Virus record (IMG/VR): IMGVR_UViG_2609459797_000001
DNA from: a virus
Taxonomy: Duplodnaviria; Heunggongvirae; Uroviricota; Caudoviricetes; Autographiviridae
Length of the DNA: 10,867 nt
Direction: 5' to 3' (one strand)
In this document: piece after piece, positions 393 through 10,867 of the stretch
How positions within the stretch are numbered: the first letter of the stretch is position 1
How the letters are laid out: every line of letters begins with the position of its first letter
The notes under the pieces: generated by a model
The model's input: only the letters and a program-made list of their open reading frames with translations
Database searches by the model: none
What the model was told of the DNA's origin: nothing
Translations under genes and position numbers: made by a program

Positions 393-457
393 TGGTGTTC
401 CTTACCTTGCAGCCTTCGGAATAGCAAAATCTATATTAGAGCATTTAGGGATAAAAG

Positions 458-1534
458 ATGAATTTGACAGCAATGAATCTTGTGAATGCGATAGCCAACC
501 TGCCCAAAAACAGGCAGTTTGATTATGTGAATGAAAGTAATGCTGGGAAGATTGTCGTCGACTCGATTAAGTCACCACAAGGCCCGATACGCTTTAAGCG
601 TTTTAACCCGACCAAAGGTGAGACGCTTAAAGATGCAAAAATAGACAGCATCTCTAGCCAGATGCTTTGGCGTTTGGCTAACGCAATTCAAGAGGATGCA
701 CCTATCAATTTAGATAGAGTGCTTGGTGCAAGCTATAACTCCCGTTCCGTTATTGAGAGTTTACTTGCACACACACCGCAATTTTATTGGTGTAAACTCG
801 ACCGTTTAGAAGTTATTAACACTAAACAGACGGTAAAGAAAGGCCACAAGCATCTTGTGTACTTACCCAATTCGCCACACGAAAACGGTAAGCTCTCTGA
901 ATACAAAGCTAATATTGTAATATCAGAGATGAAAACAGAAGTTGTTTATCAAAGTGTTGATCTGGAAACAATCCGTCCAGTTGAAGGTATGTCGATTGAA
1001 GAATCAAGAAGGCATGCACAAATCCAGATTGCTTTAGTAAAAATAGGCCACCACTTAGGCTATAGAACATGGGTGGCAGCTAATGATCGTGGACTTAAAT
1101 ATAACGGGAAAGTCATTGCTCAAATGGATGGGGTAATTGATAGTCTCTCAAATGAAAAGGTATTAAGCTCGTACAGCGAGGCCATTGACGGTGCAAAACT
1201 AATAGATTGCATTTGGTTTAGAAATGGAAAATTAATGCCCGCCGTGATGGAAATTGAGCACAGCACTGGGATTAAAAGCGGATTAATCCGTATGAAGAAT
1301 TTTTGTGACTATGCCCCACGGCTTCAAGATATCAGATGGACAATCGTAGCCCCCGATGAATATCGAGCTAAAGTCATTGAATTTGCGAATATGCCGCAAT
1401 TCCGAGAGCTGGACACAAAATTCTTCCCGTACTCAGCAGTCGAAGAGTTGTATTCTCTTTGTGAACGACGCAAACCACAAGGAATTACAGACCAATTCCT
1501 TAATGCGTTTATGGAAAACTGCGTAACCCACTGA
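458..1534 (+). CDS. Hypothetical protein (358 aa), compositionally foreign; possible nuclease or defence-type protein (inference only)
   Basis: ATG at 458 preceded by AGGGA about 7 nt upstream; uninterrupted 358-codon frame to TGA at 1532-1534. Hand counts on 60-nt samples give about 37-48% GC against a clearly GC-richer surrounding. Convergent with the minus-strand operon. Weak D...E-x-E pattern (LIDCIWF...AVMEIEHS) that could be a PD-(D/E)XK-like core; not verified. Confidence 0.7.
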   Translation: MNLTAMNLVNAIANLPKNRQFDYVNESNAGKIVVDSIKSPQGPIRFKRFNPTKGETLKDAKIDSISSQMLWRLANAIQEDAPINLDRVLGASYNSRSVIESLLAHTPQFYWCKLDRLEVINTKQTVKKGHKHLVYLPNSPHENGKLSEYKANIVISEMKTEVVYQSVDLETIRPVEGMSIEESRRHAQIQIALVKIGHHLGYRTWVAANDRGLKYNGKVIAQMDGVIDSLSNEKVLSSYSEAIDGAKLIDCIWFRNGKLMPAVMEIEHSTGIKSGLIRMKNFCDYAPRLQDIRWTIVAPDEYRAKVIEFANMPQFRELDTKFFPYSAVEELYSLCERRKPQGITDQFLNAFMENCVTH

Positions 1535-1554
1535 CTAGAAGTTAAACATCTTTT

Positions 1555-1576
1555 GTGCCGGGTGCAACCCCGGCAC
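1555..1576. terminator. GC-rich hairpin between convergent genes (8-bp stem GTGCCGGG/CCCGGCAC, 6-nt loop); possible bidirectional terminator, non-canonical
   Basis: Perfect inverted repeat at 1555-1562 and 1569-1576, lying between the stop of the 458-1534 gene and the stop of the 1589-2017 gene. A T-run precedes rather than follows the stem on the plus strand, so there is no classical U-tract in either direction. Confidence 0.3.
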
Positions 1577-1588
1577 AGCCAGAACTCA

Positions 1589-2017
1589 TCACCCCGGATA
1601 AACAACGCCCAGCCCTTGGTTTTGTTGGCGGTAGCTCGCCAGCATCGCGTTCATGTTGCCAGGCGACAGCCCACACAAACGCCCAGCATGGTAGCCACCC
1701 TCAGCAGCGTTAGCAGAACGATGCACCACAGCACGCACGCGCCCGGTTCGGTGGCAATGATCCAGCACGGCAGACGCAAGGCGCAGCGGTTTACCTGTCA
1801 CCGCACAGCGTCGGTATTGATAATTCCACAGGAAGATACGGACAGCGGCCACATCAGCGCGGCGCAACTCCAGCCGACCGGAACCATTCAACAGGAAGCG
1901 ATACACATCTTCGAATACAGCAGCATTTGTAATCCGTTCAGCCAACGGCATGTTGCCGAGGTGTTCCAGATAGTCCCGCATCGCTTTTCTTAGTAGTTGG
2001 TCTGTCCGTGTAACCAT
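1589..2017 (-). CDS. Endonuclease VII-like (phage T4 gp49 family) junction-resolving nuclease
   Basis: Motif LDHCHRTGRVRAVV...ANAAEG matches the remembered endonuclease VII core (HLDHDHE...GKVRGLLCNLCNAAEG). ATG at 2017 with GGAG about 10 nt upstream; last gene of the minus-strand operon. Confidence 0.75.
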   Translation of the reverse strand: MVTRTDQLLRKAMRDYLEHLGNMPLAERITNAAVFEDVYRFLLNGSGRLELRRADVAAVRIFLWNYQYRRCAVTGKPLRLASAVLDHCHRTGRVRAVVHRSANAAEGGYHAGRLCGLSPGNMNAMLASYRQQNQGLGVVYPG

Positions 2018-2289
2018 GATTCAAAGTCTCCATTGTCAGACGCAGCCCGCTTGCAGGCTTCGTATTCTTCGCACTGGCGTTGGCAAACCAGAACATAAAG
2101 TTCATCAGCCATCGCATTAACGCGTTCGTCACTGATACCGTTGCGGCGCATTAGCCCCAGCAGCTTACGAAATTCAGCTTCCAGCTCAGGCTCTCCGGTA
2201 TCCATTACCCACTGTTTCAGGTCAGCGAGTGCGCCAGTCATTGGCGGCGGCTCGATGTACCGCCACCTTAATTTAATCGTGGTTATCAT
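1990..2289 (-). CDS. Hypothetical small phage protein (start uncertain; 2289, 2241 and the TTG at 2337 are alternatives)
   Basis: Minus-strand frame ending TAA at 1990-1992. The listed start at 2337 is a TTG and overlaps the upstream gene by 65 nt; the ATG at 2289 overlaps the upstream stop by 17 nt, which is more typical of coupled genes. Confidence 0.45.
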   Translation of the reverse strand: MITTIKLRWRYIEPPPMTGALADLKQWVMDTGEPELEAEFRKLLGLMRRNGISDERVNAMADELYVLVCQRQCEEYEACKRAASDNGDFESWLHGQTNY

Positions 2290-2698
2290 CTTCTTTATTC
2301 TCTCTGTAAGCCGGGTGCATTGCCCGGTATTGCTCAATGGTCAAACCCTCGCTGGCCGCTGTAAGCCGTTCCTTTTGCTTACCCGCCAATCGCAAGGCGC
2401 TGTCTCTCCAGCAGAGCAGAAAGAAGACGGTCAGCACCTGCTTACTCAAGCCATCCAGAAGATCACCAAGTCCTTGCTCCAGAAGACAGGCACGCCATGC
2501 AGCGGCATGCTCCGTCATAGCGCCGACTATCGGGACAGGTGCGCCAAGCATCGTCGCAAGTTGGCTCATAACACTATTAGCATCGCCCGGATGCAGTCGG
2601 GGCATAGTCATGCGGCCAGCCTGCGCCAACAGTTCAGCGTACCGCTGGCGACGTGGGTCATCATCTGCCAGCGCTCTAATCGGCTTTTCATCAGCCAT
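2273..2698 (-). CDS. Hypothetical phage protein (141 aa)
   Basis: ATG at 2698 with GGAGG 9 nt upstream; lies 18 nt after the stop of the HNH gene; same strand and packing as its neighbours. Confidence 0.7.
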   Translation of the reverse strand: MADEKPIRALADDDPRRQRYAELLAQAGRMTMPRLHPGDANSVMSQLATMLGAPVPIVGAMTEHAAAWRACLLEQGLGDLLDGLSKQVLTVFFLLCWRDSALRLAGKQKERLTAASEGLTIEQYRAMHPAYRENKEDDNHD

Positions 2699-2716
2699 TA
2701 ATGGAACCTCCGGGGA

Positions 2717-3226
2717 TTAGGCAGCCTGCAACAAATCGGCTGGTGTTGAGGGATGGTATCTGGCTTTAGCTTTCAGGTACGCAGCACGTGCCGCCGCTTC
2801 GGATGTGAATAAGCCAAGGTGATGGCGTACACCGTCAACGCGTATGTAAGCCTCCCATTTGCTACAGCCTTTATTCCAGCTATATCCCCTTGCCTTGCGT
2901 CGGTTCTGGTCGTTTTCCCGCTGCGTAACCAAACGCAGATTGCATAGGCGGTTGTCGTCACGGATACCGTTGATGTGATCGATCTGCTTACCGTGAGGAA
3001 TAGCGCCATGCGCAAGAATCCACGCCACGCGATGGGCTTTTAGCTGGTACTGCTTGCCATCAAGTCGCAGGGCAACTTGACGATAGCCATCAGCTCGCCG
3101 GGTGGAGTCAGCATAGGAGCCAGCCTTAACCCGGCGTCGGTTAGCTTTATGGCACAAGCGACCTGTAACCGGGTCATACAGGAAAAGGGATCGCAGCAGC
3201 TCAGGGGCGTAAGCATCATTAACCAT
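2717..3226 (-). CDS. HNH homing-endonuclease-like protein with C-terminal AP2-type DNA-binding domain
   Basis: HNH_3-type motif AHRVAWILAHG...IDHINGIRDDNRLCNLRLVTQREN, followed by an AP2-like segment GYSWNKGCSKWEAYIRVDGVRHHLGLFTSEAAARAAYLKA. ATG at 3226 with GGAGGGG upstream. Confidence 0.85.
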   Translation of the reverse strand: MVNDAYAPELLRSLFLYDPVTGRLCHKANRRRVKAGSYADSTRRADGYRQVALRLDGKQYQLKAHRVAWILAHGAIPHGKQIDHINGIRDDNRLCNLRLVTQRENDQNRRKARGYSWNKGCSKWEAYIRVDGVRHHLGLFTSEAAARAAYLKAKARYHPSTPADLLQAA

Positions 3227-3242
3227 GACTCAGCCCCTCCAG

Positions 3243-4238
3243 TTACGCAGATTGTCGGAAATTGATAACGCAATCAGGACGACGCAGCCCAACGTTGAAC
3301 AGGCGATATGAGTCCATCACCATCGTCATTTCGCGTTCATCATCCCACTGGCGATTAATGACGCTCTGCGCTTCGACCGTCAACAGTACCGAGGAAGGTT
3401 TAAACAGCGTCGCCCTCGTCAGCGCTTCCTCTGCGGTAACGTCATAATCAGCGCCCAGTTCATGCCCGGTAATGGCTTCCTGCGGGTAACTATTCAGCTC
3501 GATAACTCGCACCCCAGCGACATAGCCAACACGACGCCATGCGTAATCGTTGCCACTATCCCGGCTGTAACGGACGTTCATCAGCTTCTTATGTTCCATC
3601 AGGATGCTGAACCAAGCCGGGTCGATAAGCAGTACCAACTCCGCCACCGGAATATCTTTCTCAGTCAGGAATCGATTAACAGCAGCTTTAATAGCGCTAA
3701 CCAGCTCATTCGCGGCGTCTTCTTCGCTCCCCGCTGTCAGGTCGAGCGAGACAACGTTATCCGTCAACGGGTTAAACGTTGGTTGCAGTGTCGGCGGTGG
3801 TACAAAGTCAGTCGCTTTGATTAGCTGGATGGCGTGCGCTTCGTCGTAGAATTTAGCGTGAGCAGTACCGATATTGCGGCTCAGCTCTGCGCGAAAGGTG
3901 GGTGCAGTCCAGTCATCCTGATAGTCAATGGGGATGCGGATATAGCTCAGCGTATCCACAGAGATAACCAACTTGTCCGACTTAACGGCGGTAGGCTCCA
4001 GCGATTGCCCTGCTGTTCTGCCCTTCACCTCCAGATCACCACTCAGGCGATCAATGCGGTATTGGTTGCTGGCTTTCAGCGGCCTGTATGTAGACAGCCT
4101 CTCGGCCAGAAATACGGATTTGGACTCTAAACGGGTCTGGACATCCCGGTCATAAGCCTCGATGTGAATATCATTGTCGGATTCCACCCCGCCATAATGT
4201 GGGCGAAACAGATCGGGACTGTACGAAGTATCAGCCAT
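3243..4238 (-). CDS. Hypothetical 331-aa protein; motif pattern resembles HK97-fold major capsid protein of the T7 gp10 type (unverified)
   Basis: ATG at 4238 with GGAG 8-9 nt upstream. Ungapped, position-matched motif resemblance to T7 gp10 as I remember it: VLIYDIED versus IRIPIDYQDD near residue 100; ALTK...VP...DRVFYCDPDSYSAIL versus RFLTEKDIPVAELVLLIDPAWFSIL near 185-215; NVMGFEVVEVP versus YVAGVRVIELN near 240; KYAMG..GLRPE versus SYRLFNVGLRRPD near the C-terminus. Recall-based, needs profile confirmation. Confidence 0.75.
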   Translation of the reverse strand: MADTSYSPDLFRPHYGGVESDNDIHIEAYDRDVQTRLESKSVFLAERLSTYRPLKASNQYRIDRLSGDLEVKGRTAGQSLEPTAVKSDKLVISVDTLSYIRIPIDYQDDWTAPTFRAELSRNIGTAHAKFYDEAHAIQLIKATDFVPPPTLQPTFNPLTDNVVSLDLTAGSEEDAANELVSAIKAAVNRFLTEKDIPVAELVLLIDPAWFSILMEHKKLMNVRYSRDSGNDYAWRRVGYVAGVRVIELNSYPQEAITGHELGADYDVTAEEALTRATLFKPSSVLLTVEAQSVINRQWDDEREMTMVMDSYRLFNVGLRRPDCVINFRQSA

Positions 4239-4435
4239 AACAAAACTCCTACATATGTTGATGAAGCCCGCGCCATCGTCATGGCACAGACGTGCGTAAT
4301 CCTCCCGCCGAGGCAGGATTCAGAACGGTATCGATTAAAGGGATGAGGTGCCCCGGAATGGGCGTTTTGAGGCCAGAGCTGGCGCGGTTCTCAGGGGTTA
4401 GTGCGCGTAAAGTAAGGCGAAAGTATTACCTTGCA

Positions 4436-4849
4436 TTAGTGCGCACTCATACGCGCCATGTTCAACACCTTCCGCACAGAGGTTTCAGACACACCAACCT
4501 TGCTTGCAATGTAACGATTTTTCTGACCTTTTGCAGAGCGATCGATAATGTCAGCGCGTATCGCCTCAGTGATCACCTTGCGGGGTCTGGCTCGGTTCTT
4601 CTCGTGCCGTTCACGTTCGCGCAGCCTTTCGGCCAACTTCGGCGGTAGTACAGGGGAAAGCCCACGGCTAACGCCAGATGTGCGGGTGCCGGATGTGGCA
4701 GACCGGGCAACGATATAAACCGCTTCGTCTGGATTGAAAACGTGCTGCACACGCTCAGGGTAAATGTGGTCGCATCTACCCAACGGCAAGGCGAAATCCG
4801 GGCGCACGTCAGCGACACGCTCCACAGCATGGAAATTACAGGTACTCAT
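4436..4849 (-). CDS. Hypothetical protein with C-terminal helix-turn-helix and an N-terminal Cys/His cluster
   Basis: ATG at 4849 with GAGG about 7 nt upstream. C-terminus IIDRSAKGQKNRYIASKVGVSETSVRKVLN looks like a resolvase/sigma-region-4-type HTH; N-terminus has C-x2-H...C-x-H (MSTCNFH...RCDH). Confidence 0.65.
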   Translation of the reverse strand: MSTCNFHAVERVADVRPDFALPLGRCDHIYPERVQHVFNPDEAVYIVARSATSGTRTSGVSRGLSPVLPPKLAERLRERERHEKNRARPRKVITEAIRADIIDRSAKGQKNRYIASKVGVSETSVRKVLNMARMSAH

Positions 4850-4988
4850 TACGAACCTCGGTTAATTAAAAACAGGCTTTCAGATGCCGCGCAGAATGCG
4901 GCTTGCGGGGACTCATGCGCATAGATTGGTGTGGTAGTACCGGGTCGGTGCGCACTCGGTCTTGCAGAGCGCATTCCACCGTTGGGCG

Positions 4989-5684
4989 TTAGCGGCCAGC
5001 ACGTTTGCCAGCGGAGCGCTGCGCAACCAGAGCGCGGTATTGTTCATCGTACTGGCGATGGCCGGGGCCATACCCTGATTGCTGCGCCCACTGCGAAAGC
5101 TGGTCATACGCTGCTATAAACTCAGCATGAGACATTCCGACAGGTTGCGCGGTAGACTGGCCGTATGGGTTCCCCTGTGATGGGACATAACCAGTCGCAG
5201 TGCCTGCGGACATCCTCTCTTGCAGGTACTGAACCGCCCGCTGCATCTGCGCAGGGTCGCCAGACATAACCATTCGTTCAAGGGTTGATTGCGTCCCACT
5301 GTCGAGCGTGCCAGCGTACTGTAACATCGCGTCAACTGTTCCCTGTCCGAGCTGGCTTTCAATGGACTGGTGAAACTGCCCCATCAATCCTTGCAGCTCA
5401 GCGGTATACTCGACAGCAGTTCCGTCCATCAGAGGGATAGTATCGCCCACCTGCGCCCCGGCGCTGTCAGCGTTCTGGTCTTGCTGATTAGCAATATTGC
5501 TATTATTCCATTGGCCGCCATCATTACCGTTAACGGGTTGGGTACGGAGGAAATCAGCATCAGCAGGCGCAGAGCTAAAGCGGGATGCCCCATTGTCAGC
5601 TCCAACAGGTGCAGCCATGTATGGCGATTGCTGCGATGCAGCATCAGCGCCAGCAGCGAGATAAGGGTTTTGATTGTCAGCCAT
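4989..5684 (-). CDS. Q/N/G/A-rich low-complexity protein (231 aa), function unknown
   Basis: ATG at 5684 with AGAGG upstream, 2 nt after the stop of the preceding gene. Strongly biased composition (for example NGNDGGQWNNSNIANQQDQN) with a helical-looking C-terminal half. Confidence 0.6.
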   Translation of the reverse strand: MADNQNPYLAAGADAASQQSPYMAAPVGADNGASRFSSAPADADFLRTQPVNGNDGGQWNNSNIANQQDQNADSAGAQVGDTIPLMDGTAVEYTAELQGLMGQFHQSIESQLGQGTVDAMLQYAGTLDSGTQSTLERMVMSGDPAQMQRAVQYLQERMSAGTATGYVPSQGNPYGQSTAQPVGMSHAEFIAAYDQLSQWAQQSGYGPGHRQYDEQYRALVAQRSAGKRAGR

Positions 5685-5686
5685 AA

Positions 5687-5926
5687 TTATGCAACCTCTT
5701 GTGATGTAACTCGGCGGTGCGCCAGTTCAAGTAAAAGCATGTGCGCATGTACGCATCGGGCAGGAATCATCTTCTGTCCGTGGTACGCTTTGCCGAGATC
5801 TTGTCTGTCGATCTGGTACACACGAGCCAAGTCGATTTGACGAAGATTCAAGGCGTCAGCAATGAATTTCAGTTGTTGCCCGCAATCAGCCGCGCGGCGT
5901 GGCTCCATTAAAATGATGGTGCTCAT
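5687..5926 (-). CDS. Small XRE/Cro-like helix-turn-helix protein (start placed at the internal ATG with a good RBS)
   Basis: Segment LKFIADALNLRQIDLARVYQIDRQDLGKAYHGQKMIP has the XRE-type HTH pattern. The ATG at 5926 has GAGG about 9 nt upstream, whereas the listed start at 5968 overlaps the upstream gene. Confidence 0.55.
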   Translation of the reverse strand: MSTIILMEPRRAADCGQQLKFIADALNLRQIDLARVYQIDRQDLGKAYHGQKMIPARCVHAHMLLLELAHRRVTSQEVA

Positions 5927-5940
5927 GAAATAATCCTCAG

Positions 5941-6171
5941 TTAAATAAGCCCGTGACGGCGTAGCCAACGGCGCTCGCCAGCGGAGCCACGCGGACGCTG
6001 GCGGCGTCCACGGGCGGTGACTGGCTGTTCGGGTGCGGCCTCACTTCGGAGATTCTGCGTCAGGATGTCCCACCCCTGCGGCTTAACAGGGGCGTAGCCT
6101 TCCCGCATCTCGTCAAGGTTGACGTATTGAGTCGGGTCAATTGCAGGGTGAATGATGTCGTTATCTTCCAT
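5941..6171 (-). CDS. Hypothetical small protein with Arg-rich C-terminus
   Basis: The ATG at 6169-6171 overlaps the upstream TGA stop (6171-6173) by one base in a TGATG arrangement, indicating translational coupling; stop TAA at 5941-5943. The listed start at 6186 would overlap by 16 nt. Confidence 0.45.
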   Translation of the reverse strand: MEDNDIIHPAIDPTQYVNLDEMREGYAPVKPQGWDILTQNLRSEAAPEQPVTARGRRQRPRGSAGERRWLRRHGLI

Positions 6172-6749
6172 CACTCGGCTCCCCATTTCGCATTAACATT
6201 TTCCAGAATGTCACCATACGGCCAGCGGCTCTTTAAGCAGCGGTTAACGAAAGCGATCACCTCTGGCAGAACGTCCAGCTTTTGGGCGATGTCAGCGACA
6301 GGCCAGCCAAAGCGCTCTAACTTGTGGATTTCATCCAAATCAGAAGGCACCAGCTTGCGCATGGCTTTCGCTTTCTCCGGCTTCACTTTAACGGCTTTCG
6401 GCGCAGGGTGAGTGTGGGCGTTCTGGAATCTGGAATGAGCGATAGCCAGCACGGTTTCAGGGCGAATCAGCGTATCGCGGGCAATCATAAATTCCGTATC
6501 ACGGTGCAGCTTGCCGGGCTTATAGCGGCTGCGGATGGCGTTGTATTCAGCCAGAGTAATATCAGCATCGTCTTTCCACTGTTCGGCCAAGTCATCGACA
6601 TAGACGCCACGGATTACACGGTCGATGTCGCTCGGGCTGAAACCAGTGCGAGAAGAGATTTCATCGTTGTTCAGGTGGTCAACAATACTCAGTTTATTGA
6701 TAAGCTGAATATCGCGCAGGGTCAGGGTTGCGTTACTGGTGGTTGTCAT
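6171..6749 (-). CDS. Hypothetical protein (about 192 aa) with HTH-like segments; possible DNA-binding protein
   Basis: The ATG at 6749 has GGAGAG 9-10 nt upstream; the listed start at 6767 is a TTG. HTH-like stretches near both termini (ATLTLRDIQLINKLSIVDHL and VADIAQKLDVLPEVIAFV). Confidence 0.65.
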   Translation of the reverse strand: MTTTSNATLTLRDIQLINKLSIVDHLNNDEISSRTGFSPSDIDRVIRGVYVDDLAEQWKDDADITLAEYNAIRSRYKPGKLHRDTEFMIARDTLIRPETVLAIAHSRFQNAHTHPAPKAVKVKPEKAKAMRKLVPSDLDEIHKLERFGWPVADIAQKLDVLPEVIAFVNRCLKSRWPYGDILENVNAKWGAE

Positions 6750-6924
6750 ACTGGAACTCTCCATCAAAGTTAATCGAATCTTCTACAAGGTCTTTAATCA
6801 AAGCGAGGCTGGATGCGGTATGGATACCACCGCCGCGCCGGGCGTTGTCGTACATGGCTTTGGCCTGCTTCTGGTACTTCTCAGGCAGCGAGTTAAACCA
6901 CGCTCTAAACTGGTGCGGCGTCAT
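6733..6924 (-). CDS. Hypothetical small protein (63 aa)
   Basis: ATG at 6922-6924 overlaps the upstream TGA (6921-6923) in an ATGA-type junction; GGAGG about 11 nt upstream. Confidence 0.5.
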   Translation of the reverse strand: MTPHQFRAWFNSLPEKYQKQAKAMYDNARRGGGIHTASSLALIKDLVEDSINFDGEFQYDNHQ

Positions 6925-7130
6925 TCGTTGTCATCCTCCGGGAACACGTTATTGAAAGATGCGTCCGGCGCATCGGCGGCATTTTGCTTGAGGAAGTTCA
7001 CGCAGGATGACAGCTCGGCAGCAGCCATGCGGGATTCTCCAGCGGAGTCCTCTTTCAGGCGGCGGGTCAGCGCCTCCAGCAACAGGCACCGCATATCCCA
7101 TGTCCCAGCTTCAAACTCGGTTTTGGTCAT
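6921..7130 (-). CDS. Hypothetical small protein (69 aa)
   Basis: ATG at 7128-7130 overlaps the upstream TAA (7130-7132) in a TAATG junction; same operon and strand. Confidence 0.5.
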   Translation of the reverse strand: MTKTEFEAGTWDMRCLLLEALTRRLKEDSAGESRMAAAELSSCVNFLKQNAADAPDASFNNVFPEDDNE

Positions 7131-7561
7131 TAATGGTTATCTCCAACTGGTAACAGGCCAAGCGCCCGGATGTGCTGTATCACTTCTTGATGCACGGGCT
7201 TCGGCAGAAATAAACGGCGGGCAATGGCGGCGTAAACTTCATCAGGTGTCTTGCGCACTGGATGCACTCGACCATTAAAAACCCGCTCAGACAGGCGGAC
7301 AGCTTTCCAGCAACGTGAGCCATCCGGCCTTTTCATGCGGTTCAGCACAGCGGCCAGACACTCCCACGGTTCGCAATCATTCAAAAGGCAATATCGCTCC
7401 AGCGGCGTGGACACCTCGCGAAGGATGGCCTCCCGGTTAAGGGTCTTGCGATGACGTTCGGCCAACCCATCAAATGAATACCCGTTCAGGGCGTAAGCGA
7501 GCTGCGCATTAATCAGGGCGTCAGAACGCCCCGCGCGTTGCTGCACGGTTTCATCAGGCAT
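7130..7561 (-). CDS. Hypothetical phage protein (143 aa)
   Basis: ATG at 7561 with GGAG 8 nt upstream; 43 nt downstream of the helicase stop. Confidence 0.7.
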   Translation of the reverse strand: MPDETVQQRAGRSDALINAQLAYALNGYSFDGLAERHRKTLNREAILREVSTPLERYCLLNDCEPWECLAAVLNRMKRPDGSRCWKAVRLSERVFNGRVHPVRKTPDEVYAAIARRLFLPKPVHQEVIQHIRALGLLPVGDNH

Positions 7562-7604
7562 GTGGATTCTCCAGAGAGGAAATTAAACAGGCGAGCCAGT
7601 TAGC

Positions 7605-9449
7605 TCAGAGGAAGCGGGAGATGTAACCCCAGTTAGCATTGTGGGGCTGGTACAACGCCGCCAAATCATCAGGCGCATCCCCCAGCGCCAACGATGACCA
7701 GAGTATGAAAGCACGGGCAGGTTGACCATCGCGCCCGGCACGGCCAACCATTTGCACCAAATCGGGCAGGTCTTCCGGAACATAAGTGACAATTACGTTA
7801 CGCACGTCAGAAATATCGGCTCCGAGGCCAAAGGCTTTGGTCGCCACCAGAACAGCGCCGGGCGTGCTGGAGAACCACTCTGCGTTGGCGTGCCGCTGAT
7901 CGCGGCTCAGTCGCTCAACGTCAGAATGATAAGGCCGGGCACGGTCTCCCAGTTCGTTGAGATACGCATACAGCATCTTTATGCTGTCCACCATCACCAA
8001 TGTCTTTTCATTCTCCGGCAGCGCATTGACCAGACCAACGGCAGCCCGGCGCGGAGTTACGCATTGCTGAGCAGGAATAAGCTGGATGTTTTCACGGGCA
8101 GCACTGGCGCGGTAGGTGAGGAACTCGCCACGACAGCCAAGCTCTTTCATCAAGCCAGACTCATCACCTTTTCGCAGGGTCGCAGTAAACGCGCACCGCT
8201 GAGCATCCGGGAAGGCATTTTGCAGGGTGTGCTTCATTGCAGGGAAAGCGTCCCGGAACTCCCATTCATCAACGGTGTGCACCTCGTCAATGATAAATCT
8301 GTCCGCACCAGCGGCCATCAGCGCGGCAAGCACCTGACTACCCGGCACCAGATGTTCAGGCGAAACGACTGCGACGCGGAAAGCACCAGCAGCCAACCCC
8401 GCAAGTTGCTGCGCATTACGCCGCTTCGGTAGTTTATCGCCAAATGCCACAGCGTGAACGCCAGCCTCCCTTAACTGCTGTAGCACCTGCTGCTTGATAG
8501 TGTTCGTCGGCACGACAATAACGGTCATACCTTCGCCAGCATCAGACTCAAATTGCAGGGCATAGGTGAATGCAGCCGTCTTTCCGTACCCGGTCGGCAG
8601 TACGGCCAACATATCGCGGTCACGGGCAAACACAGCGGCGGCCACGTCGAGTTGACCGGGTCGCCAGTCATGACCATCTGGCGGCGGTAACGGTACGAAT
8701 GCCGGGCGGTCGCATTGCTCCAGCTCACGGAACCTGTACGGCGCTGTAACCAGCGGCGGGATGGACGGCGGCAGGTCAGCGCCGCCAACGTCACAGTGTT
8801 GGTTCTTCGTGTTGAAATTGTCCTTAGTGGATTTCAGCTCACTGCCCCATAGCTGGTGAAACTCCGGGCTATCCCCGAGGGTGTCAAAGTCAGCGTGGCG
8901 CATCGCCTCCAGCTTGCTCATGCCACGATTGATGCGGCGGATGGTCTTCTCATCACAAATCAGAAACTCGCGACAGGCTTTAAGAAAGGCGTTTTGCCCC
9001 GTGGTCGCTTCCGGGATGGCGTGCTCACGCGGTTTCAATGCGGCATCGTCTACGCGAACACCGGGGAAATCTGGTGGCAGCGGCTCGGCGTACCGGGCAG
9101 GCTTTTTGTTTAGCCACATCACCAGCTCAGCGCGGCGGCAGTGGATTGCATCGCCCGGCTGGATAATCTGGCGCAACCCTGCATCAGCGCGGCGGGCGTG
9201 TGTCTTGCGTCCGATTCCGTTAGCCTCTTTCCATTCTCGGAACGACATAACAGAATCGTCAGCGTTAAAGTAAAACTCTTGTGACTCCGTATTAAACGCA
9301 GCCTGTATGGGTTTACGCTTTACAGGACATTGCTTGTTACGCGATACAACTATCTTATCCGCAACCAGTTGCTGAGCATCCGCAGGCGCAGTGTTCAGCG
9401 GTTCGGCGTCAGCGGCCAGCGCAAGCAGGCGGTTCAATCTCGTGGGCAT
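7605..9449 (-). CDS. SF2 DExH/RecQ-like helicase (614 aa) with a roughly 270-aa non-helicase N-terminal extension
   Basis: Helicase motifs in order: LPTGYGKT (motif I), VVPTNT (Ia), DEVH (II), FTAT (III), VGRAGRDGQ (VI). ATG at 9449 with GGAG 9 nt upstream. Confidence 0.9.
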   Translation of the reverse strand: MPTRLNRLLALAADAEPLNTAPADAQQLVADKIVVSRNKQCPVKRKPIQAAFNTESQEFYFNADDSVMSFREWKEANGIGRKTHARRADAGLRQIIQPGDAIHCRRAELVMWLNKKPARYAEPLPPDFPGVRVDDAALKPREHAIPEATTGQNAFLKACREFLICDEKTIRRINRGMSKLEAMRHADFDTLGDSPEFHQLWGSELKSTKDNFNTKNQHCDVGGADLPPSIPPLVTAPYRFRELEQCDRPAFVPLPPPDGHDWRPGQLDVAAAVFARDRDMLAVLPTGYGKTAAFTYALQFESDAGEGMTVIVVPTNTIKQQVLQQLREAGVHAVAFGDKLPKRRNAQQLAGLAAGAFRVAVVSPEHLVPGSQVLAALMAAGADRFIIDEVHTVDEWEFRDAFPAMKHTLQNAFPDAQRCAFTATLRKGDESGLMKELGCRGEFLTYRASAARENIQLIPAQQCVTPRRAAVGLVNALPENEKTLVMVDSIKMLYAYLNELGDRARPYHSDVERLSRDQRHANAEWFSSTPGAVLVATKAFGLGADISDVRNVIVTYVPEDLPDLVQMVGRAGRDGQPARAFILWSSLALGDAPDDLAALYQPHNANWGYISRFL

Positions 9450-9472
9450 GTTTGAAATCTCCAGTCAAATAA

Positions 9473-9775
9473 TCAAGCAGCTTTCCGCCAGATGTATCGG
9501 CGGTGGACACCTCTCTTTTTGGTCACGCCGTGCAGCTTTCGCCATGCGCGGAAGGTCATAACGGAACCATCGGGATTGTAGTAATACACACGCAGACGTT
9601 TGTGGAATGCTCCCTGTACCGTCTTGTCCGTGACAGCGCAGCGCACGTAATGCGGGATAACAGTTTCACTCCAGACCAGTTGTTGCGGCGTGGCGCTAAT
9701 CGTGCTTAACGCTTCGGCGGCAGCGGTTGCCAGCTCCAGTTGCAGGCGTGAATTCATGTGGCGTAAATCAACCAT
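9473..9775 (-). CDS. Small protein (100 aa) paralogous to the N-terminal ~90 residues of the downstream helicase
   Basis: ATG at 9775 with GGAG about 8 nt upstream. Ungapped alignment to helicase residues ~3-92: QQLV, C-x-V, K, Q-AF, Y-N-D-SVM-FR-W, G, K, RR all in register. Confidence 0.7.
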   Translation of the reverse strand: MVDLRHMNSRLQLELATAAAEALSTISATPQQLVWSETVIPHYVRCAVTDKTVQGAFHKRLRVYYYNPDGSVMTFRAWRKLHGVTKKRGVHRRYIWRKAA

Positions 9776-9818
9776 GATGTAAGCTCCAGAAATTAAGGTG
9801 AGTTTAGAACGGGGCGCA

Positions 9819-9875
9819 GGACGGAAGCGCCGGAAGTGTGGCGGTGGCGGTTGAGGCGGCGTCGGTGTTCCGTCC
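9819..9875. other. GC-rich interrupted hairpin (stem GGACGGAA/TTCCGTCC around a 41-nt GGCGG-repeat loop) in the operon leader
   Basis: Perfect 8-bp inverted repeat at 9819-9826 and 9868-9875, with an inner CGCCG/CGGCG pair and three GGCGG repeats in the loop; lies 45-100 nt upstream of the first start codon of the minus-strand operon. Confidence 0.3.
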
Positions 9876-10123
9876 CTCTTTAGTAGTGATCTTCATCCAG
9901 TGATTTGGATTTAACTCAGGCGCAACAGGCAATGCAGCGGGATAGCGCGAGGGCGGGCTTGTGGTCTCATCTTCCCACAGTAGTAACCCTTATCGGTCGG
10001 TAGCCTTCCCAATATAGTAGCTTTCAAGTCAAGAATTCTATCCGGGGCTTGCCTTCCCTTTGTAGTCACTTTCATCCACGCATACCCCGGACAGCCCTTG
10101 TGGCGTCTGGTGCGACAGGCAAT
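9876..10123. repeat. Iteron-like imperfect direct repeats in the noncoding region upstream of the helicase operon
   Basis: CTCTTTAGTAGTGATCTTCATCCA (9876-9899) versus CCCTTTGTAGTCACTTTCATCCA (10056-10078); GGCGCAACAGGCAAT (9919-9933) versus GGTGCGACAGGCAAT (10109-10123); CTTGTGG twice; CAATATAG twice; TAGTAG-type hexamers four times. Confidence 0.4.
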
Positions 10124-10252
10124 TTCAGGTAGGTGTATTAGGGATGTGAAATTGGTTCTTGGCGTAGCTCTTTCCTACAATATAGACACTTTTAAATTTA
10201 TTAATAAATGCAGTCAGTTAAACGGTTATCTTTATTACCTATAACTTTCACA

Positions 10253-10274
10253 GATCAATAGATTAAAATTGATC
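10253..10274. promoter_or_regulatory. Palindromic operator-like site GATCAAT-N8-ATTGATC containing two GATC (Dam) sites
   Basis: Perfect 7-bp inverted repeat with an 8-bp AT-rich spacer, located just upstream of the promoter-like hexamers. Confidence 0.35.
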
Positions 10275-10287
10275 GGAATTATCAGCT

Positions 10288-10325
10288 TTAAATTTCTTGA
10301 CAGCTATTTGTATAATGGTTTTAAG
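10288..10325 (+). promoter_or_regulatory. Rightward sigma70-like promoter candidate (overlapping alternatives)
   Basis: Perfect TATAAT at 10311-10316 with TTAAAT 17 bp upstream (10288-10293); alternatively perfect TTGACA at 10297-10302 with TTTAAG 17 bp downstream (10320-10325). AT-rich upstream region. Confidence 0.35.
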
Positions 10326-10329
10326 AAGT

Positions 10330-10470
10330 TGTATCGGAGTGAGCGACTGGCAGTGAGCGTAGCGAACGGTAAGCCAGTCGGCGAAGAACGAAGAGTATGA
10401 GATGACTTGTCATCGAATACGATGAGTGATTGAGCGCTACGAACGAAGATACGCTGTATAACAGTTAGAA
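10330..10470 (+). other. Hairpin-rich untranslated segment downstream of the promoter candidate; possible small RNA or leader, interrupted by IS1
   Basis: No ORF longer than a few codons. 8-bp stem CGACTGGC/GCCAGTCG (10344-10351 and 10373-10380); two mutually exclusive hairpins sharing TCATC (GATGA-CTTG-TCATC at 10401-10414 and CATCG-AATA-CGATG at 10411-10424); GAACGAAGA repeated at 10386-10394 and 10441-10449. Confidence 0.2.
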
Positions 10471-10527
10471 CAGTTAACTAGCTGAATATGAATAATACAT
10501 TTAATATTTATCTGGATTAGTATTTTC

Positions 10528-10867
10528 GGTGATGCTGCCAACTTACTGATTTAGTGTATGATGGTGTTTTTGAGGTGCTCCAGTGGCTTCTGTTTCTATC
10601 AGCTGTCCCTCCTGTTCAGCTACTGACGGGGTGGTGCGTAACGGCAAAAGCACCGCCGGACATCAGCGCTATCTCTGCTCTCACTGCCGTAAAACATGGC
10701 AACTGCAGTTCACTTACACCGCTTCTCAACCCGGTACGCACCAGAAAATCATTGATATGGCCATGAATGGCGTTGGATGCCGGGCAACAGCCCGCATTAT
10801 GGGCGTTGGCCTCAACACGATTTTACGTCACTTAAAAAACTCAGGCCGCAGTCGGTAACCTCGCGCA
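10528..10867 (+). mobile_element. IS1 insertion sequence, 5' portion (left terminal repeat and insA); continues beyond the window
   Basis: GGTGATGCTGCCAACTTACTGAT at 10528 onward matches the IS1 end repeat as I remember it; insA starts 55 nt inside, as in IS1. Same orientation as the IS1 fragment at 1-392. Confidence 0.9.
10583..10858 (+). CDS. insA: IS1 InsA (91 aa)
   Basis: Translation [43 protein letters not shown]...LKNSGRSR recognised as IS1 InsA from memory; complete ORF with stop at 10856-10858. Confidence 0.9.

Follow-up and report, generated by a model that had tools for sequence, protein, structure and literature searches.

Why a mobile element should encode the N-terminal end of its helicase twice, once within the helicase itself and once as a free-standing protein directly upstream, is the question raised by IMG/VR virus record IMGVR_UViG_2609459797_000001, a DNA of 10,867 nucleotides (nt) assigned to the Autographiviridae. 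This whole stretch was analysed and is referred to below as the window. The helicase, a protein of 614 amino acids (aa), is encoded on the minus strand (nt 7605–9449), and is preceded on the same strand by a small open reading frame (ORF) of 100 codons plus stop (nt 9473–9775). The latter is a free paralog of module 1 of the helicase, i.e. residues 1–92 (nt 9174–9449, minus strand), and analyses by BLASTP, substitution rates and AlphaFold support this fused module as the parent of the free copy.

Paralogy, origin and constraint of the small ORF

In a BLASTP alignment, residues 7–87 of the small protein match residues 1–82 of the helicase with 34 of 82 positions identical (41%), 61% positives and an E-value of 2e-18, and with a single gap of one residue. 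The Smith-Waterman score is 153, whereas shuffling the small protein 1000 times gave 29.8 ± 4.4 and never more than 49 (z = 28). The two DNA units are 61% identical, and the likeness holds to every helicase allele tested (tblastn, 1e-14 to 1e-19). A multiple alignment of nine helicase alleles, the small ORF and its ortholog contains about 24 invariant positions, one set of which forms the N-terminal helix (L-x3-L-x2-AA-AE-L-T) and the other a core (QQ, C-x-V, A, N-x-D-x-S-x-M-x2-R-x-W, G, K, R). No third copy was found within the window by tblastn. A preliminary description, made by reading the sequence, had proposed a stand-alone paralog of the helicase N-terminal domain directly upstream of the helicase, and the E-value and z-score given above bear this out. 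The pairwise alignment is significant, and the objection that the match might be compositional is removed by the comparison with shuffled sequences. That the two proteins are not homologous and resemble each other by chance may be regarded as refuted, being contradicted by the BLASTP result (which uses composition-based statistics), the z-score and the matches to all alleles. The same description had the alignment as gapless, which is incorrect, and among the shared motifs it listed, QQLV, Q-x-AF, Y-x-N-x-D-x-SVM-x-FR-x-W and G...K...RR are present as given, while 'C-x-V-x-K' is really C-x-V-x-x-K.

The origin of the second copy can be traced from the sequences around the two start codons. In relatives where the helicase is the first gene, its ATG follows a conserved leader, ...CTCACCTTAATTTCTGGAG-N8-ATG. 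In the window this leader (nt 9776–9800, minus strand), which is common to L002, L012 and L015 (loci of related islands are denoted by L numbers), precedes the ATG of the small ORF instead, with a conserved Shine-Dalgarno motif, CTGGAG, at nt 9784–9789, 8 nt before the start codon; the small ORF begins exactly at the position of the relatives' helicase start codon. The helicase keeps a second copy, CTGGAGATTTCA.ACATG, which matches the family leader CTGGAGATTTCACCATG and lies in the 23 nt spacer between the two genes (nt 9450–9472, minus strand), where CTGGAG (nt 9459–9464) stands 9 nt before the helicase ATG as a duplicated ribosome-binding site. When the window is compared with the metagenomic locus L025, the flanks are 82–87% identical up to the ATG and again from about helicase codon 6, and between them there is one clean insertion of ~326–340 nt. 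The insertion and the doubled CTGGAGATTTCA..ATG point to a tandem duplication of the ribosome-binding site and the first ~95 codons, and it is by such a partial duplication of the helicase gene that the small ORF is shown, from these comparisons, to have arisen.

The junction is the same in L007, a locus carrying an 88%-identical ortholog of the small ORF, which indicates a single duplication before the lineages of the window and L007 split. The spacer between the small-ORF stop and the helicase measures 23 nt in the window but 22 nt in L007, and the distance to the helicase ATG is 326 and 325 nt, respectively. The relative frame is thus not conserved, so that the small ORF and the helicase are separate cistrons, and a programmed frameshift or read-through joining them is ruled out. 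On a neighbour-joining tree, a long branch unites the free copies, which are 36–39% identical to all enterobacterial helicase N-domains and 22–25% identical to the distant P0026 and P0024 types. This branch reflects either fast divergence after the duplication or a source allele that has not been sampled; the rate of the free copy today, relative to the rate of synonymous substitution (dS), equals that of the fused domain.

Comparison with the L007 ortholog also shows that the small ORF is constrained as a protein. The ratio of non-synonymous to synonymous rates (dN/dS) is 0.13 at a dS of 0.54, with 27.5 synonymous and 15.5 non-synonymous changes, and neutrality is rejected (one-sided binomial test, p = 6.7e-8). 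The fused domain of the helicase is under like constraint (dN/dS 0.128), while the two other frames of the same strand give values above 2. One antisense frame has a ratio of 0.16, as expected where third codon positions coincide, and selection on the opposite strand was set aside as an explanation; the sole ORF in that frame has 68 aa, a GTG start and is without homologs. The small ORF is therefore confirmed, as far as sequence can do so, as a real gene maintained by purifying selection, and the objection that it might be untranslated is answered to the same extent. The natural variants M7L and M7I argue that M1 (nt 9775), not M7, is the start. A terminator-like hairpin at nt 9476–9489 was ignored, as one site was found and 1.2 are expected by chance. 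In the NCBI database the exact small protein is annotated as 'MULTISPECIES hypothetical protein [Enterobacteriaceae]'. It was counted on 386 contigs of E. coli, Enterobacter hormaechei and E. cloacae, and has an entry in GenBank under accession AOP85257.1.

The author of the preliminary description did not recognise the shared domain, and family and fold searches agree with this. Neither the small protein nor residues 1–260 of the helicase matches any model of Pfam, PHROGs, NCBIfam or PADLOC. A search of 1.84 billion representative proteins with a hidden Markov model (HMM) gave 13 matches, which comprise the free-copy cluster, the helicase clusters P0019 and P0026, their fragments or frameshift products, and two marginal hits. 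A weak profile match (E = 6e-4) was not used: it leads to P0028, which contains four 'GPDGxxRTIxEWxxxxGI' repeats and itself barely reaches DUF2695, and it gives no more than a hint of a unit made up of a strand and a helix-turn-helix. An excisionase/MerR-like winged helix at about residues 65–115 of the helicase was likewise rejected, as it has no Pfam support and the predicted local distance difference test score (pLDDT) of the AlphaFold model is below 50 beyond residue 82. The confidently modelled parts of the two proteins coincide. They cover residues ~31–86 of the small protein and ~25–80 of the helicase (pLDDT 77–87), in whose fused module only residues ~23–80 are confident, and in both copies the elements follow in the same order, an N-terminal helix, then a helix, a beta-hairpin, two short strands and a helix, with an offset of 5–6 residues. 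Because these parts coincide, the models suggest that the small ORF would hold a whole compact unit rather than a cut domain.

The helicase and a second released module

The helicase consists of an N-terminal extension of ~255 residues and a two-lobe core (residues 260–586) resembling those of RecQ and DpdF. The core is of the superfamily 2 (SF2) DEAD/DEAH type (Pfam DEAD, 1.2e-18; Helicase_C, 1.9e-15), and the catalytic cores of RecQ and WRN in the PDB align only to residues 261–586 (RecQ core 1oyw to 261–585). The protein scores below the curated cut-offs for RecQ (TIGR00614, 137.6 vs 219.8 bits; TIGR01389, 139.7 vs 640.2 bits); no RQC (Zn/winged-helix) or HRDC domain was detected in it with Pfam at E ≤ 1, and it ends ~28 residues past the core. 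With the NCBIfam model for DpdF (NF041063) it reaches 116 bits, below the cut-off of 550, and it matches the PADLOC sub-model for DpdF, PDLC02858, with 1053 bits over residues 111–614 (nt 7605–9119, minus strand). The latter match begins exactly at residue 111, just after M110, which indicates that the seeds of this sub-model were members of the island helicase family, taken from an internal start. Defence-system scans with PDLC02858 would label the island helicase 'DpdF'; no Dpd model was matched by the six other window proteins scanned with PADLOC, and no dpdA–K cluster accompanies the gene.

The 255-residue extension has no relatives outside the island family. Module 1 is the most divergent segment of the helicase between alleles, with 63–83% nt identity; in the same loci the middle segment shows 76–86%, and the core up to 93%. 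A further unit, module 2 (residues ~123–201; nt 8847–9083, minus strand), is present in the window in fused form only. In L021 and L034, whose 621 aa helicases are of the P0026 type and the most divergent recovered, a free paralog of module 2 is encoded by an 85-aa ORF directly upstream of the helicase (nt 4753–5010 of L021 and 5001–5258 of L034, plus strand), separated from it by a 10–11 nt spacer with the motif AAGGAG. The 85-aa protein of L021 is 37% identical to residues 125–201 of its own helicase, P0026 (E = 2e-13), and 40% identical to residues 145–191 of the helicase in the window (E = 2e-10). Between L021 and L034 the dN/dS of this ORF is 0.25, and only one small cluster of it was present in a database of 5.8 billion proteins. 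On this sequence evidence, free modules of the N-terminal extension have arisen upstream of the helicase at least twice, independently. Given this recurrence, free modules appear to be useful rather than accidental, and to have been selected repeatedly. The independent second case, involving a different module, suggests a possible rule for this island helicase family, and points to the 255-residue extension as the part of an uncharacterised helicase that offers a functional handle.

Occurrence of the free copy and its possible function

The possibility, raised in the preliminary description, that homologous helicases elsewhere also have a free N-domain copy upstream did not hold up as a general rule: the free copy does not regularly accompany these helicases, and the same N-domain allele occurs with and without it. 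The island is present in 82 of 5,426 complete E. coli genomes, and none of these 82 carries the small ORF at the DNA level; the six E. coli loci inspected have the fused copy only. The fused copy alone was likewise found in nine other species-representative genomes (Rosenbergiella, five Enterobacter, Kluyvera, Kosakonia and Trabulsiella; free copy in 0/9) and on one IMG/VR contig (0/1), and neither the small ORF nor the helicase N-extension is encoded in the plasmid and phage collections. Twelve metagenome loci were found by way of the helicase. Two of these (L022 and L024) have an identical free copy, four have a 145-aa gene in its place, and in six the slot is empty. Nearly the same helicase N-domain allele is accompanied by the free copy (window, L022, L024), by an empty slot (L023, L025) or by the 145-aa gene (L033). 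This last gene (MSKTL...ARSI; nt 20493–20930 of L001 and 3872–4309 of L003, minus strand; also in L013, L026, L028, L029 and L033) is highly conserved and matches no family; that it might be a third paralog of the helicase was rejected (hhalign probability 1.3%). The free copy is, then, optional, an accessory gene in a 'first-gene slot' whose content varies, and not a conserved partner of the helicase.

The region upstream of the small ORF contains an array of repeats at nt 9871–10078, which includes four copies of CTTCCC-N4-TAGTA (ACTAC/T-N3-5-GGRAG in the direction of the genes), spanning nt 9871–10067, and a 36-nt pair. It is followed at nt 10150–10330 by an AT-rich stretch of 37–39% G+C (~55% in genes), which is conserved in L002, L003 and L005. 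Repeats of the same type are found in L007, L012, L017 and L002, and the relatives that have them differ in their N-domain allele. Repeats and an AT-rich stretch beside a candidate initiator gene are the layout of an iteron origin, and the array looks like either such an origin or an operator. The region is mosaic: L003 has an N-domain of the L001 type and an upstream region of the L002 type, and the upstream region of L007 is 36% identical to that of the window. A side observation concerns nt 10287–10460 (plus strand), where a promoter-like TTTAAA-18-TATAAT is followed by ~130 nt that hardly differ from those of L002, L003 and L005; as RNA, this stretch is predicted to fold only marginally better than shuffled sequences (z = −1.8), and it has no match in Rfam.

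With somewhat better than even confidence, the small ORF is considered to be a translated and constrained paralog, derived by duplication, whose product would modulate the helicase in trans. The duplication copied the ribosome-binding site and ~95 codons of the helicase gene, the upstream copy keeping the ancestral leader and start, and the helicase is now translated from the duplicated site, 23 nt past the small-ORF stop. The free copy has retained the N-terminal helix and the beta-hairpin/helix core, while its surface has diverged to ~40% identity and its tail is more basic. Acting in trans on the helicase pathway, it might bind the same ligand as module 1, whether DNA or a protein partner, or the conserved N-terminal helix might allow it to pair with the helicase. 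In both cases it would tune the recruitment or activity of the helicase, as an optional add-on rather than a part of the island core.

Several observations weigh against a modulator. The free copy is rare and nearly clonal, with two sequence types that are 88% identical, and it forms a single cluster at 50% identity among the 1.84 billion representatives. At least four near-identical alleles (P0003, P0004, P0005 and P0034) have recently been frameshifted, from which it follows that the small ORF is dispensable in the integrated state; in L010 (nt 4610–4911), an island otherwise nearly identical to the window, it is broken by a deletion of 1 nt in a run of AAA. The lesions in L010, P0003, P0005 and P0034 arose independently. 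The free and fused copies are only ~40% identical and differ in charge (KRK to TDK), and with ~60% divergence and such changes the same ligand is perhaps no longer bound, which weakens simple competition. Among the loci compared, N-domain alleles do not track the upstream repeats or region. No PDB or fold match was obtained for module 1, and the mean pLDDT of the models is modest (65 for the small protein and 52 for residues 1–260 of the helicase).

A modulator nevertheless ranks first, as a best guess, followed by a positive adaptor, a relic and a decoy. As an adaptor, the free module 1 would use its basic tail to bind either the ACTAC-N-GGRAG repeats or the AT-rich region (nt 9871–10330), and the shared N-terminal helix to recruit the helicase, being a loader or specificity subunit and not a competitor. 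The small protein is indeed strongly basic (17 K/R vs 6 D/E, pI 10.6), it is the product of the first cistron of the operon, the repeats and AT-rich stretch lie directly upstream, and both the free and the fused copy preserve the N-terminal helix. However, most islands have the same type of repeat yet work without a free copy, which weakens an essential role; L007 has a free copy although its upstream region is so different from that of the window (see above); and no DNA-binding fold was recognised. An adaptor is accordingly thought rather unlikely, albeit next in rank. Less probable again is that duplication or recombination of a helicase gene left its 5' end behind as the small ORF, open by chance or for the sake of translation into the helicase start. 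The patchy, nearly clonal distribution and the several frameshifted alleles would fit such a relic, as would the end of the ORF at about the end of homology, where its last residues, YIWRKAA, resemble frame-shifted ADAGLRQ at the DNA level. The low dN/dS (0.13, p = 6.7e-8) speaks against it, being equal to that of the fused domain and specific to this frame among those of the same strand, as ribosome transit alone would not conserve an amino-acid sequence; moreover, the reading frame stays open in both of the diverged lineages and on the 386 contigs.

A decoy is the most doubtful of the four. In this case an inhibitor made by a helper phage or the host would target module 1, and the free copy would titrate that inhibitor. 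The divergence of module 1 between alleles, the satellite-like character of the island and its capsid gene, 56% identical to those of podophages (see below), could be read in this way, but the proposal is purely inferential, the dN/dS of module 1 is low (0.13) and not raised as in an arms race, and no such inhibitor is known. A broader scheme, which is held to be a long shot, combines the extension with its host: the extension would be a string of separable modules, repeatedly released as co-translated gates of the helicase, the enterobacterial lineage having released module 1 and that of L021 and L034 module 2, and the host would be a new family of satellites parasitising podophages. The released proteins would then be a device for copy-number or anti-helper control, and since the capsid gene is of the phiKMV/T7-supergroup type, the family may parasitise virulent podophages.

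The host island and comparison with known systems

Within the window, nt 393–10528 represent a fragment of an integrative island, lying between two IS1 ends in direct orientation (nt 1–392 and 10529–10867), with the C-terminus of InsB at nt 111–377 and InsA at nt 10583–10858. Intact relatives adjoin a tRNA-Leu gene; they encode an integrase and a serine recombinase, together with cargo that varies, being either AbiTii or a type II restriction enzyme accompanied by a C5-methyltransferase. The window, with IS1 at both ends, lacks the integrase, methyltransferase, serine recombinase and tRNA-Leu of these relatives. A type II restriction endonuclease of 358 aa is encoded at nt 458–1534 (plus strand; PADLOC PDLC03534, E = 1e-122). 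In relatives, a gene for a C5-cytosine methyltransferase overlaps the start of the corresponding gene. As IS1 abuts at position 392, the endonuclease appears to have lost its adjacent methylase.

A major capsid protein gene (phrog_267; nt 3243–4238, minus strand) encodes a product that shares 56% identity with the major capsid proteins of Escherichia podophages of ~42 kb, such as Lidtsur, forsur and glasur. It matches 765 phage records, of which most are from phages of Klebsiella, Acinetobacter and Pseudomonas. Other recognised products of the island are HNH and endonuclease VII nucleases, and many further ORFs are orphans. No portal, terminase, primase or AlpA was recognised among the window proteins in scans with Pfam, PHROG and NCBIfam. 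None of the hallmark sets of phage satellites is complete in the window, whether of phage-inducible chromosomal islands (PICIs; alpA plus pri-rep), capsid-forming PICIs (capsid, portal, protease and terminase) or P4 (psu, delta, sid and alpha). The combination of an integrase and attachment at a tRNA gene, another mark of satellites, is found in the relatives, both lying outside the window. One related locus, L020, sits on an IMG/VR contig, which is only suggestive with regard to packaging by a helper phage. On these sequence features, the host element looks like a leuX-type integrative, phage-satellite-like island. A full-text search of the literature found no description of the island, the helicase or the small protein. 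A protein of 202 aa, P0024, consists of a divergent module 1 joined out of frame to the region of a 231-aa gene (window nt ~4913–5362), and looks like a deletion derivative of an island whose helicase was lost.

The practical gain in annotation is modest, in that a 'hypothetical protein' on 386 contigs becomes a paralog of a helicase N-terminal domain. If the free module does modulate the helicase, it would provide a compact and tractable example of a mobile element evolving a regulator, made by duplicating no more of its motor protein than the targeting end.

As for the helicase itself, its two RecA-like lobes align to the cores of E. coli RecQ and WRN and to the HMMs of the RecQ family and DpdF, whereas it differs from these in scoring below the cut-offs, in being without RQC/HRDC domains or dpd neighbours, and in its unique extension. 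Satellites offer a second comparison. In P4 (Cnr and alpha) and in the Staphylococcus aureus pathogenicity islands (SaPIs; Rep and an iteron origin), as proposed for the present island, a small island protein would modulate a helicase-type replication protein, and repeats and an AT-rich stretch lie beside the helicase gene. P4 alpha, however, is a superfamily 3 primase-helicase, SaPI Rep is not RecQ-like, and Cnr is not a paralog of alpha, whereas the island helicase has an SF2 core like those of RecQ and DpdF, and its role in replication is putative.

By analogy, the nearest functional counterparts are truncated-copy regulators and stand-alone domain paralogs such as Hda. The former include InsA of IS1 (as against InsAB'), Inh of Tn5, and E2-TR and E8^E2 of papillomaviruses. 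As in these, the short protein corresponds to the N-terminal targeting part without the catalytic part, being homologous to helicase residues 1–92 only, is encoded at the same locus and would be expected to share the same target. Unlike them, it is not produced from the parent gene by frameshifting, an internal start or splicing, with a sequence identical to the parent domain; the small ORF is a separate, duplicated cistron that has diverged to ~40% identity, and inhibition could be proposed only by analogy. Hda is a stand-alone paralog of domain III of DnaA and regulates this initiator; the likeness is that a single domain of a replication protein has a free paralog, which acts (or, for the small ORF, would act) on that protein in trans. 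Hda, though, is an ancient and universal AAA+ protein encoded elsewhere in the genome, whereas the small ORF is recent, restricted to one lineage, and a tandem copy of an orphan domain. Set against all of these analogues, the small ORF stands apart as a tandem duplicate that is encoded separately and has diverged, copied from an orphan domain that belongs to an SF2 helicase and is carried by a satellite-like island.

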